64,000 nucleotides of DNA from Moniliella sp. 'wahieum' (Eukaryota). Within the stretch, counting starts at the first letter, position 1, and the number at the start of each line of letters is the position of its first letter. This document shows positions 1-61,603 of the stretch, in pieces. The stretch is from positions 558,001-622,000 of the forward strand of contig RSEE01000016.1 of assembly GCA_003971905.1 (NCBI GenBank), given 5' to 3'. The notes under the pieces are model-generated. The model saw nothing but the letters and a program-made list of their open reading frames with translations, did not search any database and was not told where the DNA came from. Both the position numbers and the translations under genes were made by a program.

Positions 1-1834
1 TCTCGGGCCGGCTGCGAGTGGTAGTGGAGGGGGGGAGGTGGTAGCGGGAGAGAAAGAAGGTTGAGACGTGGTAAACGCGGTGAGAAGCGGGCTGATGGGG
101 TGACCAGTGAGGGACCGATATAGGAAGGAGTGGGTGAGCGTGTGAGCGCTGCTGACTGATTTACGGACACTGGAGATCGAGAACTCGGAACTGACTTGAA
201 TTAGTTCAGTACTGAGTGAGCGTGACGCGTGACGCGTGACCCGTGGCGTGTGATGTGCTGTGGAAATTATCACAGCACACTCGTCCCGAGCCTTCCGCCT
301 TATGTCCAACGGTTAACAATATGACCGGTGACAGACCGGTGACCTCGCCTGTCATGCATGTCGAAGGTGTTTGCTGACATCATGCATGACGTCACTTCGA
401 CAGCACTTGTGTGGCAAAGGGCGTCACATCAGTGTCATGGTGAGAGGGTGTCAGATCTCAGAGCCGATCTCAGAGGGTTTATTAGTTCGGTACAGTGTCT
501 GAGTCTCGCTCGAGACCAGTCGGGCCCTGAGGCGGCCTCAGAAGGGTCAGTCGCTAGTCCCTCACTACTTCACTCCGTCACGCGTCATGAGTCATCCAAT
601 ATGACTTCACCATCGCGGTGCGCGCGTTCAATTGATCGAAACCTGAAGCTCTTGAAGCTTGAAGCTCCATGCTCAAAGCTCCAAGAGCCTCAAGGTGCAT
701 CTTTTGAGCAGGTTATTTCGCACCCAATCCAAGTTCGAGGCGTTGTATACGAGAGGTCGCGCAGGAGCCAGTCCTCAAATGCGTGCGAGCTCCATGTGGG
801 ACACCCCGCTCTCTCAATGAGCCAACAGTTGTGGAGAGAAGAGGAAACGAGGTGGGGGGACAGGGCCACATCTACGTCTGGATTACTGAGTGAGTAATAT
901 GGGTGCGAGTGTGTTGGAGGAGATCTGGGATGGAGGTGGACCACATCATGACAGCCTGGTATAGAAGGTCGGTGGGCACTGGTGCACTGGTGACAACTAC
1001 ATACACTTCTGACAATCTTCCAGCTCACAGGATGAGGCATCTGATGAGACCTGGAGTCCAGATGGTCCTCGAGGGTGATGCAATGGCACTAGTGGTGCTG
1101 GTCTAAGCCAACCAGCACCTCCTACAGAGGAAATGTGAACATCACGCAGAGAGTCGCCACCAGGGGCTAACCTGCGGAACAAGGAAAACAGGAGAGAAAA
1201 CAACGGAACTCCTAGGCCTGAGGAGGAACTGAAGGGACATTGGCCAAAGCACGAGCCACCTGATGGCTCAACAGCATCTCTCCTTGAACATGTTCGGCGA
1301 GAGTTGTGGACTTATATATTGGACGCAAGCGGGTGCACTGCTGGGCTGTAGGGGGCATTCCTTGTTCTACTTCAACGTCTGTCATGCCCTGAACAAGGAA
1401 AGGATATAGCAAGAAGCAAGCGAGGTGTGCGAGGACGAAGTGCTAACTATGATGGTCAACGATCCCTGGTATGGAGAGACAGGGTCGGTGAAGAGAGCGG
1501 GGAAGGCGTTTCCTAGAAACCCACCCCAAAGAACATATTCACCTTGACTAAGAGGTTGAAAAGAGTAGAGGGTACATTTTGCCGAAGATCATATGGTACA
1601 CGTGTAATAGAAGCAAAGGGGTAGGAGAAGTGGTATGGGCCCAAAAATGAAGGAACTCGACCAGCAGCAGCTGAGCTTGTTCGTTCATCATCAGGCCCTG
1701 CGCGAAGTAGCCAATGACTCGAGCGGCCACAGTGACAGCTCCATGGCATACACTGAAACGCAGGAAGGTCTGCACCTGTGCCAAGACAGGTTGTAATAGC
1801 AGATTGGGGTAGTCAAGACAAGAGGAAGAAGCTC

Positions 1835-2335
1835 TTAAATGTAGTTGGCGGGCTTGCGGTCTTTGGGGTTCCGGCGCTTTGGGGCTGCTACCCTTTGGTG
1901 GGTGCGCTTGCTAGAAGCCTGCTTACTCTTTTTGGACGAACCCTTCTTGCTAGATGACTTCGAGAGTGAGCCGAACACGGTCGGGGCTGAGTTACCCTCA
2001 TCAACAGTCATGGCTAAGAGCAAAAAATATGTCAGTATATACTGGCCGCGCCAAGGCTAAAAAGGTGGCATACCATCCTGCGTCTCCGCGACGTTCCCCC
2101 CATTTTGCAAGAATAGTTCATCTTCCTCAGTGACCTCCTCACCGGCCTCCTTGCGATCCTTGATTTCCCGCAGCCGGGCCAATACCGAAGTTTTGGGCTG
2201 CAGCTTGCGCTCAGCTAGGCGCGCCGCGATCTCTGCCTCGCGCTGCTTCTGCACCTTAACATAGTCTCCATTTGGGTCGGTGCGCTTGATATTGCGTGCA
2301 CGCACCCGAACTGCTGAACGCAAACTCTTGGCCAT
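1835..2335 (-). CDS. DUF2423 / YBL028C-like small basic nucleolar protein (2 exons, intron ~2014-2073)
   Basis: N-terminus MAKSLRSAVRVRARNIKR...QREAEIAARL resembles YBL028C (MAKSLRAS...). GTATGC donor at 2073, ACTGAC branch, TTAG acceptor at 2014, Lys/Arg-rich C-terminal exon. Confidence 0.75.
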
Positions 2336-2711
2336 CTTTGTGTGTTGGTCGGAAGCGGATAGACAGGTAAGTAGAGGGAATGGGCTCGTGGCCACAAAAA
2401 GGATTGGCCTCCACTGTGGGTTGAGGCGGATCTGCAAATTTATGTTTCACCGTACAGTTCCGCCAAGCCAGATTGGCACTTCTCGGTATGAATCCGTCGT
2501 TGCACCGAAATGAAGATTCCTCCCCGCCTGCCAGGCCTTTTAAGCGCCGCCAGTTCCTCTCCTTCTCGTTGTTCTTGGCACCACCACCTCTCGCCTTGTA
2601 TTCGTCCTTCGTCCAGAGCGCTTAAGATGGGGGAACGGTCACAACATTGACACCACCATTCCAGAAAAGGCTCTCATTCTGTTTCGGTACGTTCATCCCC
2701 CTTTCCTTTTC

Positions 2712-2820
2712 ATGATGAGGAATTTAAATGACGAGTCCAAGGCTTGGCCTCAATGGGTCCTGGATATTTTTCCTTGACCCGGCGAATGCTGCCTAGCCCA
2801 AGACGACATTTGGCTCCTGA
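2712..2820 (+). ncRNA. Intronic box C/D snoRNA, snR75/SNORD15-like with a snR13-like second guide
   Basis: Inside a GTACGT...GCTAAC...TTCAG intron (~2687-2889). Box C ATGATGA at 2712 and box D CTGA at 2817. Guides ATGACGAG and CATTTGGCT are complementary to conserved LSU rRNA AGCCAAAUGCCUCGUCAU. Confidence 0.65.
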
Positions 2821-3012
2821 ATCACCTCTCTTCGTTTATATGGCCTGCGGTGGATGGGTGTGCTAACCATGCCTGACATGTTCTTCAGATTCAATACCCC
2901 GTCTATTTCCCGAATATACCCCGTTCAGCGTTGCTTCCCAGTCCTCTATGGCACCGTCACGCCAAATGAACTAACCCTCCTGAAGGTACGTTGGCCATGG
3001 CCTTCCCTTTCC

Positions 3013-59045: not shown

Positions 59046-59548
59046 ATGGTGCGTCTGGCCGTCCTTTTCTCTGCCTCTGCATTGCCGCCGTTGGGCGGCC
59101 CTTCCACTTGTTTCGCCTCCCTCTGACCCCTTCTCTCTAGGCCCGCACCAAGCAAACCGCCCGCAAGTCTACCGGTGGCAAGGCGCCCCGCAAGCAGCTT
59201 GCCACCAAAGCCGCCCGCAAGTCGGCGCCCTCGACCGGCGGCGTCAAGAAGCCCCACCGCTACCGCCCTGGTACTGTGGCTCTTCGTGAGATTCGTCGGT
59301 ACCAGAAGAGCACGGAGCTGCTGATCCGCAAACTGCCGTTCCAGCGTCTGGTGCGTGAGATCTCGCAGGACTGGAAGACGGACCTGCGCTTCCAGTCGTC
59401 GGCTGTGATGGCGCTGCAAGAGTCGGCTGAGGCCTACCTGGTCTCTCTCTTTGAGGACACCAACCTCTGTGCCATTCACGCCAAGCGCGTCACCATCCAG
59501 CCCAAGGACATTGCCCTGGCTCGCCGTCTGCGTGGCGAGCGCACCTAA
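59046..59548 (+). CDS. HHT1: Histone H3 (ATG exon, intron 59049-59140)
   Basis: [21 protein letters not shown]...RRLRGERT; unusual EISQDWKTD. Confidence 0.98.
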
Positions 59549-60617
59549 GCATGCCCCCATGCGGGGACACGTTTTGTTCCGCTTTTGTATATGTACTACT
59601 GTCACTCTATGATTTGGAAGCACCTTGGGCTTGGCTGCAAATGTGTAGATGGACAGTTTTTGACGCTTGAAGCTGCGAGTATACCCTTCAGAGCTTTCTG
59701 GATGAGATATGAAGCTTGAAGGGGTAATAGCAACCCGATGGTTTGGGTTCAGCGTGTTCAACCCACGCTAACGCTAACATGTAACAAGAGATGCGGCGCT
59801 CTCAGATCGCAGCTCTCTTCAAGCTTGAACTTCAAGCTTCATGCATTCATGGTTCAAGCTTCAAGCCTCAGTACTCGGTACACTTGTCGGAGGCGTGCTT
59901 CACACATGGAACCTGGCACACGCGACGGATCGGCCCATGCAGAGAGAGAGACCAGTAACCCGGAGCCTGTGTGGCCTTTTGCGCCCTCCGCCAGTCTTCG
60001 TCTGCACGTCAGCTCCGCATAAAAGTAAGCAGCATGCATCAGGCATGGCAAACGTTGAGCACGACCAACTGAGATGGGCACGACTGTATGAACACTCCCG
60101 CCGCGGCCGTAGGCCGTATTCCTTACCAGTCGGCCGGCACAGCTGGTAACTCCAAGCCATGTTCATCAATCATCGCGTCAGACTTTTCAGGCTTCACGCT
60201 TCACGTGTCACATGTCACGACGTGAGGCAAACGCGTAATAGTACCACGCGCGCGACGCGAACAATGCAAGATAAAATATTGCCGCAAATCTCATCATACG
60301 CCGTGCAAATGGTTTGGGTGGGTCAGCTGGCCCAAACGCCGCCACGTCCCAATTCTCAATTCCCTGCCGAAGACCGCGAAAGCGCCACCAGCACCCATAG
60401 ACGACCCTTAGGCCCTACGTGGGTATCTACTGCTCATGCCAACGGTACCCGTAACAACACTAGCCACCCAAGGACGAGACGAGTCCCGGTTCTGGTTAAC
60501 CACCATCCGGAGAATTTACATACTAATAACGTAGAGTTCATGAAGCATGTGTTCGAGGTGCTAGAGTACAAAAAGTGCTGGAGGATATCGCCAGAGGAAA
60601 CGGATCCAATGAGACGC

Positions 60618-61108
60618 TTAGACCTCCTGCGATGCCTTCTTGCTCTTGCCCGACTTGGCGGGCAACAGCTCGGGTTATGTGTGGGAAGAACAACCACACC
60701 CTGGGAGATGGTAACACCGCCCAGAAGCTTGTTGAGCTCCTCGTCGTTGCGGATGGCCAGCTGGAGGTGGCGAGGCACGATCTGAAGTTACGTGGCCTGG
60801 TCAGCAAATGGACATGCAAAAAAGCAAAACAGACACAAGAGGGAAATACGCACACGACTCTTCTTGTTGTCACGCGCGGCGTTGCCAGCCAACTCGAGGA
60901 TTTCGGCAGTCAAATACTCGAGCACGGCAGCCAAGTAGACGGGCGCACCGGCACCGACACGCTGGGCATAGTTGCCCTTGCGAAGCAGACGGTGGATACG
61001 GCCCACAGGGAACTGCAGGCCAGCCTTGGCCGAACGCGAGGTCGCCTTGGAGCCAGCCGCGCCACCGGCCTTGCCACCCGACTTGCCACCAGACTTGCCG
61101 CCAGACAT
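60618..61108 (-). CDS. HTA1: Histone H2A with C-terminal SQEV (gamma-H2A motif); intron 60782-60853; indels in the 3' part
   Basis: [43 protein letters not shown]...[18 protein letters not shown]...KASQEV. Confidence 0.97.
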
Positions 61109-61603
61109 AGTTGAAGAGAAAAGTTGTTGAGGAGAGGTGGGGGGTGAAAAGGTTGGGAAGAGAGGTGGGGGTGAACCCGATGGACGCCCTTGGGACTGAC
61201 GGTTTTATACTGGTTGCGCGAATGGTGGGATGAGATCTGAGACAGCTACAACCTCGCTGGTGACTGGACCAGTGACTGGCAGGTGGCAGTGCGCAGTAGC
61301 GCGGAGGATGCTACAGGTCGTACCCGTTATCCTGCCTTACCCAGCCGAGGGCACGCAGGCCTACCGGCTTACCACCACCAAGGCCACCCTGCGTCGCTGG
61401 TCGCAGCCTGACTGGCACAGCGGCGCTGCCGGCTTGGAGGGTGGAACGAAGGGGCTGTGGCTAGTTACTGCGGTGGTGCGGAGACACTTGAAGTTTTGGT
61501 GCGCACTAATATTACTTGCAACGTGACGCGTGAAGCTTGAAGCTTGAAGGTTGAAGTACAACTTGATGTGGAGTGTCTCCAGCCAGGCTGCGGCAACATA
61601 CCG

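Follow-up and report, generated by a model that had tools for sequence, protein, structure and literature searches.

A variable-core T-[C/G]-A motif in a 64-kb stretch of Moniliella sp. 'wahieum' DNA and its possible origin by templated 7-bp micro-insertion

Short-range template switching, of the fork-stalling/template-switching or microhomology-mediated break-induced replication type (FoSTeS/MMBIR-type) and including quasi-palindrome mutagenesis, is the nearest described system to the motif reported here (see PMC5453318 and PMC8604942). Small insertions in human insertion and deletion data that result from one template switch and return leave pseudo-palindromic features (PMC3638132). The DNA analyzed here is a window of 64 kb with 59% G+C, by which we mean the whole stretch from position 558,001 to 622,000 of contig RSEE01000016.1 of Moniliella sp. 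'wahieum', and the element in question is T-S-A-N4-T-S-A (S being C or G) with a self-complementary N4 core. This element is strongly over-represented and lies almost entirely outside predicted coding sequence; all motif counts other than those of the control DNA refer to this single window and were made on the assembly sequence alone. We tentatively read the motif as the product of a lineage-specific and sequence-specific small-insertion mutation process and not as a protein-binding code, a view to which we would give somewhat less than even chances.

The motif resembles the products of template switching in two respects. A few added bases would be copied in reverse complement from their neighbours before copying resumes on the original template, and what results is a local perfect palindrome, of whatever sequence, in non-coding DNA. 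It differs in that the known process has neither sequence specificity nor a fixed length, whereas the motif needs T, S and A, the gain would always be 7 bases and the products chain in register. With the excision footprints of transposons it shares in outline the layout (a direct repeat, a 4-bp palindrome and the same repeat again) and a T-N-A triplet, but not its 14 kinds of core, its cores that copy the flank and the absence of any element within the window. Bacterial heptamer repeats have the same 7-base period, but here the motif is mostly 10–14 bases long, its four variable bases are palindromic and the host is a fungus. The motif works most like a template-switch micro-insertion and looks like a transposon footprint, and it corresponds in full to none of the three kinds. 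The nearest known kind may be described as templated small insertions or cryptically simple intergenic DNA; the variable-core T-S-A form itself was not found in print, as no description of it turned up in the openly accessible full text that was searched (papers in subscription journals lying outside this scope) and the exact array strings used as literature query returned unrelated papers only. Nor did this literature yield anything relevant on the heptamer arrays of Ustilago intergenic DNA that the original prediction had offered as a possible analogue.

Extent of the excess and anatomy of the unit

In the window T[GC]A-N4-T[GC]A is present at 106 sites and N4 is self-complementary in 52 of them, which group into 44 separate chains (38 solo, four double and two triple). 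The original prediction had spoken of about 44 exact 10-mers counted by eye, a figure that turns out to be the number of chains and not of sites, and all twelve coordinates that it gave as examples are exact. For comparison, the palindromic share of N4 over all N3-N4-N3 sites in the window is 5.8%. Sets of 100 simulated windows each were generated from Markov backgrounds of order 1, 3 and 5 and contained on average 3.6 (maximum 10), 3.1 (maximum 7) and 7.0 (maximum 23) palindromic-core sites, respectively, so that the earlier chance estimate of two to three sites was right, with about three at orders 1 and 3. A scan over spacings 0–8 gave 106 sites for spacing 4 against 44–83 otherwise. The 54 non-palindromic sites at spacing 4 are background and the excess at this spacing is made up wholly of palindromic cores. 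When all 64 triplets were compared as identical flanks, TCA enclosed a palindromic core at 22 of 43 sites and TGA at 21 of 37, the runner-up triplet having four.

As control DNA we used 80 unrelated metagenome loci (1,002,017 bases), which carry malate synthases only 50–63% identical and which we take to be mostly bacterial. They contain 43 palindromic cores among 474 sites, or 0.043 per kb compared with 0.81 per kb in the window, a roughly 19-fold difference over 1 Mb. That the motif arose by chance, from base composition or as an artefact of assembly or sequencing seems highly improbable to us. The arrays are indeed known from the assembly only, but simulation means of 3–7 sites and a maximum of 23 even at order 5 stand against the 52 sites found, the density is far above that of the unrelated DNA, and the sites occupy unique, varied contexts all over the window and avoid coding DNA, which is not how an artefact would behave.

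Fourteen of the 16 palindromic 4-mers are used as core. All twelve that contain G or C are present, as had been predicted, but the accompanying statement that AT-only cores were unseen is wrong, AATT (TGA-AATT-TCA, 21530) and TTAA (TCA-TTAA-TCA, 55180) each being found once; ATAT and TATA do not occur among the 52 sites. The motif had also been called exclusively intergenic, which holds for 50 of the 52 sites but not for those at 15443 and 28972, as judged from a rough coding mask built from codon usage, trained on Pfam-supported reading frames and spanning 48.5% of the window.

The unit proper is larger than the 10-mer. Because period-7 identity extends at least 2 bases past the 10-mer on one side or the other in 37 of the 44 chains, where about five are expected, the real minimal unit is the 12-mer T-N-A-x-y / y'-x' / T-N-A-x-y, of which 51 were counted on both strands compared with 0.4 in simulations. 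New bases that are the reverse complement of the adjoining bases, as template switching would leave them, are what this count shows, but template switching would require no sequence word, and here T, S and A are each needed. This follows from the triplet counts above as well as from the 12-mers and the outer base pairs. The general form abc-xy-y'x'-abc-xy is found 80 times, with TCA or TGA at the start in 48 cases, TAA or TTA in three and the other 60 triplets together in 29. Described alternatively as a 6-bp palindrome, one base and then the first half of the palindrome again, the form is found 81 times with A..T as the outer pair (odd base C 38, G 39, A 2 and T 2), and the remaining three outer base pairs give 12, 12 and 7 cases, which is about chance level. 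Longer palindromic cores are not enriched (one of 83 for six bases, one of 47 for eight), other combinations of repeat length and reverse-complement spacer give 0–7 sites each and plain 7-bp repeats 19. Upstream of the unit a T at -7 and an A at -5 are present in 22 of 44 cases, and three of the six multi-unit chains have mixed cores, for example CATG adjoining GGCC, so that the 7-bp register with interchangeable cores was described correctly from the beginning.

Direct runs of at least 13 nt exceed expectation two- to fourfold whatever the period, with period 7 the most enriched (86 vs 16 simulated), and tandem duplication is generally active in the window. In 28 of the period-7 runs the unit is a 6-bp palindrome plus one base. 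It might thus be argued that the sites are plain heptanucleotide microsatellites whose quasi-palindromic units expand via slipped hairpins, the more so as multi-unit arrays form weak hairpins with T-S-A triloops (-4.5 vs -1.9 kcal/mol in shuffles, the largest about -6 kcal/mol). We consider this improbable. Solo chains predominate (38 of 44) and only 19 of 44 reach at least 14 nt of period-7 identity, that is two full heptamers; hairpin slippage should favour all 6-bp palindromes, but only the A..T type with C or G as odd base is enriched (22 of the 28 runs); and neighbouring units are unrelated in the three mixed chains, whose cores slippage cannot make. Solo sites show no stable single-strand fold (mean -0.87 vs -0.56 kcal/mol in shuffles). 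A hairpin like that of the bacterial short tandemly repeated repetitive (STRR) heptamer sequences was also considered and rejected, as with these values the long arrays with stable hairpins of that class were not found.

Sites, neighbouring genes and repeats

The window encodes a malate synthase, ribosomal protein L18, RRM, bHLH and LRR/SOG2 proteins, a GH79 hydrolase, histones and a kinesin. Among named organisms, the malate synthase has its best relatives in Tilletiaria anomala (69% identity), Violaceomyces, Tilletia and Malassezia, with protein matches up to 75%, and judged from these sequences the host is a smut-related fungus of the Ustilaginomycotina. No tRNA genes or Rfam families were found in a search across the window. 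The gene models and the annotation of the gaps between genes are rough. The sites, taken from a motif scan of the window and with no strand assigned, are the following.

206..215: TCA-GTAC-TGA, solo, full 10-bp palindrome; period-7 extension L0/R2
223..239: TGA-CGCG-TGA-CGCG-TGA, double; 21-nt period-7 run from 220
322..331: TGA-CCGG-TGA, solo; near copy follows at 334
380..389: TCA-TGCA-TGA, solo, full 10-bp palindrome
451..460: TCA-GATC-TCA, solo
578..587: TCA-CGCG-TCA, solo
653..662: TGA-AGCT-TGA, solo; within a 16-nt period-7 run
6341..6350: TCA-ACGT-TCA, solo; within a 14-nt run
11744..11753: TCA-GTAC-TCA, solo; within an 18-nt run
12018..12027: TGA-GATC-TGA, solo
12625..12641: TGA-CATG-TGA-GGCC-TGA, two-core chain
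12653..12662: TCA-GGCC-TGA, solo
12702..12711: TGA-GCGC-TGA, solo
15443..15452: TCA-AGCT-TCA, solo; edge of a predicted coding segment
21479..21488: TGA-CGCG-TGA, solo; divergent promoter separating the LRR/SOG2 and FAM210 genes
21530..21539: TGA-AATT-TCA, solo, AT-only core
21594..21603: TGA-AGCT-TCA, solo; within a 12-bp palindrome
21650..21659: TCA-AGCT-TCA, solo; roughly 40 bp upstream of the open reading frame (ORF) for FAM210
27229..27238: TGA-TCGA-TGA, solo
27933..27942: TGA-TCGA-TGA, solo
28431..28454: (TCA-AGCT)x3-TCA, triple; within a 33-nt period-7 run from 28425
28972..28981: TCA-AGCT-TCA, solo; inside a low-complexity ORF
36926..36935: TGA-AGCT-TGA, solo
37306..37322: TCA-GGCC-TCA-GGCC-TCA, double; runs in register into the 37327 site
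37327..37336: TCA-CTAG-TCA, solo; same register as the 37306 chain
37536..37545: TCA-CATG-TCA, solo; within a 14-nt run
44025..44034: TCA-CGCG-TGA, solo; within a 14-bp palindrome, upstream of the GH79 gene
44051..44060: TCA-CGCG-TCA, solo
45488..45497: TGA-CTAG-TGA, solo
45624..45640: TCA-TGCA-TGA-TCGA-TGA, two-core chain; inverted copy at 46051-46072
45836..45845: TCA-ACGT-TCA, solo
45848..45857: TGA-ACGT-TCA, solo
46054..46063: TCA-TCGA-TCA, solo; within a 17-nt run
49706..49715: TGA-GATC-TGA, solo
55180..55189: TCA-TTAA-TCA, solo, AT-only core; on the 3' side of the gene for malate synthase
57507..57516: TCA-CATG-TCA, solo; upstream of the gene for malate synthase
58684..58693: TGA-CGCG-TGA, solo; flanked by divergent predicted genes, a putative histone pair
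59710..59719: TGA-AGCT-TGA, solo; gap between convergent genes
59819..59828: TCA-AGCT-TGA, solo; within a 19-bp odd palindrome
59832..59841: TCA-AGCT-TCA, solo
59854..59863: TCA-AGCT-TCA, solo; T[GC]A register goes on at both sides
60208..60217: TCA-CATG-TCA, solo; sole perfect unit of a 5-unit chain (60187-60222) whose remaining cores miss a palindrome by one or two bases
61231..61240: TGA-GATC-TGA, solo; divergent histone promoter
61524..61547: TGA-CGCG-TGA-AGCT-TGA-AGCT-TGA, triple, mixed cores; divergent histone promoter

Rare variants with A or T as the odd base, flanked by TTA or TAA, also exist.

27707..27716: TTA-CATG-TTA
37680..37689: TAA-GGCC-TAA
53013..53022: TAA-AGCT-TAA
59775..59784: TAA-CATG-TAA

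The sites are clustered at 1-700 bp and at 11.7-12.7, 21.5-21.7, 27.2-29.0, 36.9-37.5, 44.0-46.1 and 57.5-61.5 kb, and some non-coding kilobases have none at all. By the rough annotation divergent gaps are densest with 2.3 sites per kb (12 in 5.3 kb), followed by convergent gaps with 1.2 and tandem gaps with 0.7-1.2. Clear cases are the promoter in the LRR/SOG2-FAM210 gap, the two divergent histone promoters, one of which lies at 61205-61826, and the DNA upstream of the GH79 gene. Such a distribution would fit a selected intergenic cis-element, be it a promoter, a terminator or a chromatin element (nucleosome exclusion, insulator, origin), possibly one read through T-S-A words 7 bp apart together with a local two-fold symmetry. 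Among the clustered sites are those of the two divergent histone promoters and those upstream of malate synthase, and CGCG-core units in the two histone promoters (58684 and 61524) contain ACGCGT, the MluI cell-cycle box, which is the binding site of MBF-type factors in fungi. The histone promoters moreover have a different, T-C-A-containing 18-nt direct repeat in common, and such repeats may be regulatory.

Nevertheless, we think a cis-element unlikely. The MluI box accounts for only eight of the 52 sites and leaves the other 13 cores and the T-S-A frame unexplained. With 14 of 16 palindromic 4-mers as core there is no fixed recognition consensus, we know of no protein that reads "any palindrome", and the 38 solo chains have no stable fold that base pairing could offer for reading. 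Where two histone genes converge with their 3' ends, the gap (59.7-60.2 kb, sites 59710-60208) is as rich in sites as the promoters, and the orientation of the sites to the nearest gene start is inconsistent (15 vs 7, the cases not being independent). For a recognition site it would also be needless that the core copies the flanking bases, and one would not expect one-off derivatives to be about as common as perfect sites. After background subtraction about 11 such derivatives differ in the core and about 38 in the flank, together about 49 compared with about 48 perfect ones; this ratio near 1 is roughly what constant birth and neutral decay by point mutation would give. Core usage tracks the background frequency of the T-S-A-x-y word in non-coding DNA (Pearson r = 0.53, p = 0.035; 16 cores, 47 loci). 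Readings as a heat-shock element or as bZIP half-sites were rejected, as they fit single cores only.

Several other repeats were seen in the window. The 18-nt element of the divergent histone promoters lies at 58629-58646 on the forward strand and at 61601-61619 and 61746-61763 as reverse complement; one pair is identical at 18 of 18 positions and the other at 18 of 19, on the opposite strand the element is itself a direct repeat of TTCACA with an 8-bp period, and it probably has a regulatory role specific to histone genes. Longer perfect palindromes (15-19 bp), one arm of which carries TGA and the other TCA, are located at 527-541, 11580-11597, 12636-12650, 45620-45637 and 59821-59839, and because of them a purely inverted T-S-A symmetry can be said to exist beside the form in 7-bp register. 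A 22-nt inverted repeat (45622-45643 and 46051-46072, 407 bp apart) is 91% complementary with 17 nt perfect, and both arms are the same mixed-core chain of TGCA and TCGA units. The interval within it is not otherwise palindromic (alignment score 9 vs a shuffle maximum of 8); as it bounds no extended palindrome, a clear miniature transposon or long hairpin was rejected.

A paralogous segment of about 350 bp is found at 36102-36456 and 44867-45208, 8.75 kb apart, with 80-88% identity, in or beside plus-strand frames, and its homology ends before the motif clusters that follow each copy. Frames of 551-722 amino acids at 28498-31267 contain an 18-bp-period tandem repeat of 29 registers (29427-30219) and, with a repeat-type Pfam match to Cementoin, probably represent a repetitive low-complexity protein. 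A 15-bp-period coding repeat (26073-26247) in the RRM-domain gene resembles a glycine/tyrosine/arginine-rich tail. Heptamers unrelated to the motif that exceed third-order expectation in non-coding DNA are GATTGCA/TGCAATC (15 vs 3.1), CACTGGC/GCCAGTG (27 vs 8.8) and AACCCTA/TAGGGTT (8 vs 1.9).

How the motif may arise

Since 14 different cores are used and all are symmetric, a single DNA-binding specificity cannot explain the motif, and the copying between core and flank, in whichever direction it went, is a signature of templated synthesis. The event that we propose would take place at T-[C/G]-A followed by any two bases x and y, where a stretch of 7 bases would be added, turning T-S-A-x-y into T-S-A-x-y / y'-x' / T-S-A-x-y. 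This would amount to a short reverse-complement "turn-around" copy followed by a second copy of the same five bases, thus a templated micro-duplication of the template-switch or hairpin-repair kind. Each event would create a new T-S-A, so that further events could stack in the same 7-bp register with new cores, and ordinary replication slippage would then lengthen arrays with the same core, in keeping with the general activity of tandem duplication in the window. The mixed chains point to repeated independent events at T-S-A, because slippage and point mutation cannot turn CATG into GGCC. A gain of 7 bp would break a reading frame, and we propose this as the reason why 50 of 52 sites are in non-coding DNA, where the products would survive and decay by point mutation. 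The requirement for T-S-A would imply a sequence-specific enzyme. We infer the insertion from the structure of the unit alone, and likewise the neutrality of the process.

Another origin would be offered by DNA transposons of the cut-and-paste type with a 3-bp T-N-A target duplication, through their excision footprints, in which the 4-bp palindrome would be the two terminal bases left from each inverted end. T-N-A (T-W-A, W being A or T) is the target duplication of PIF/Harbinger elements and of IS5-group insertion sequences, and Tc1 leaves the footprint TA-CATG-TA. The form resembles the classic layout, T-N-A with any N occurs although S dominates, a transposon that repeatedly entered and left the duplicated target would produce chains in one register, and promoter-proximal open DNA is typically preferred by such transposons. 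However, 14 cores would need 14 terminal dinucleotides where the filler should be constant per family, the core correlates with bases outside the triplet in 37 of 44 chains where it should be independent of the flank, and a single exact geometry is seen where a spectrum of variants would be expected. No transposase domain was detected among 148 scanned ORFs of at least 135 amino acids and no obvious or convincing terminal-inverted-repeat element was seen within the window. The best-studied PIF/Harbinger element, mPing, is reported to excise precisely (PMC4561436), which also counts against footprints. Altogether, we hold this origin to be quite improbable.

Several schemes of duplication and fold-back were rejected on their predictions. 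After a 7-bp target duplication from a staggered cut at T-S-A-centred sites, non-palindromic cores should outnumber palindromic ones about 15-fold, which was not seen. With a 5-bp duplication combined with hairpin-opening nucleotides, a mirror product is expected in which the repeated 5-mer has T-S-A at its 3' end, and this was found only twice, and pure fold-back synthesis predicts complementary flanking C/G bases, present at 9 of 52 sites only.

A number of points also weigh against the templated insertion that we favour. All evidence is from a single 64-kb window, and no pair of ancestral and derived sequences was seen in it. Neither template switching nor hairpin-opening repair is known to be sequence-specific, whereas the motif depends on each of T, S and A, and these two processes, which the original prediction had named as possible generators, on their own leave this strict need unexplained. 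No step-by-step enzymatic scheme that we could devise yields the 12-mer without extra assumptions, and a symmetric hairpin opening would predict the mirror product that is nearly missing. The identity of the flanking S on both sides (43 of 52 palindromic sites) is weak evidence for direct duplication, as the baseline at non-palindromic cores is already 37 of 54. Derivatives with S changed to W (A or T) are fewer than simple decay predicts, with four observed of which 1.6 are background. Finally, the higher density in divergent gaps and the patchy distribution, which would fit a functional element too, belong here.

The original prediction had left the choice between a mechanism that generates palindromes and an element that reads symmetry. 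The evidence leans to generation because the cores copy their flanks, only one geometry is used, the decay looks neutral and solo sites have no stable fold, although neither alternative is shown. More speculatively, and in our view with only a minor share of the probability, a lineage-specific and previously undescribed DNA transaction might write the 7-base templated unit, two bases copied in inverted form and then the site once more, at T-[C/G]-A in open intergenic chromatin. The agent might be a nuclease, an enzyme of topoisomerase-like or transposase-derived kind, or a turn-around of the polymerase. Perfect and decayed sites in their observed ratio would set its rate at about 0.4 events per T-S-A site for each point substitution per base, and new palindromes and promoter sequence would then have in it a major, sequence-programmed source.

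Meaning for these fungi

If the motif is genome-wide, intergenic DNA in this fungus would be written by precise, sequence-addressed micro-insertion and not by random drift. A templated insertion at T-S-A, if true, would leave a directly testable mutational signature, namely 7-bp gains at T-S-A-x-y sites, and would open a way to find the enzyme behind it. Searches for motifs in these fungi call for caution, as the top over-represented promoter words may be mutational scars and not regulatory elements. The same process would supply ready-made 6-bp palindromes, the typical shape of a dimeric transcription-factor site, exactly where promoters lie.

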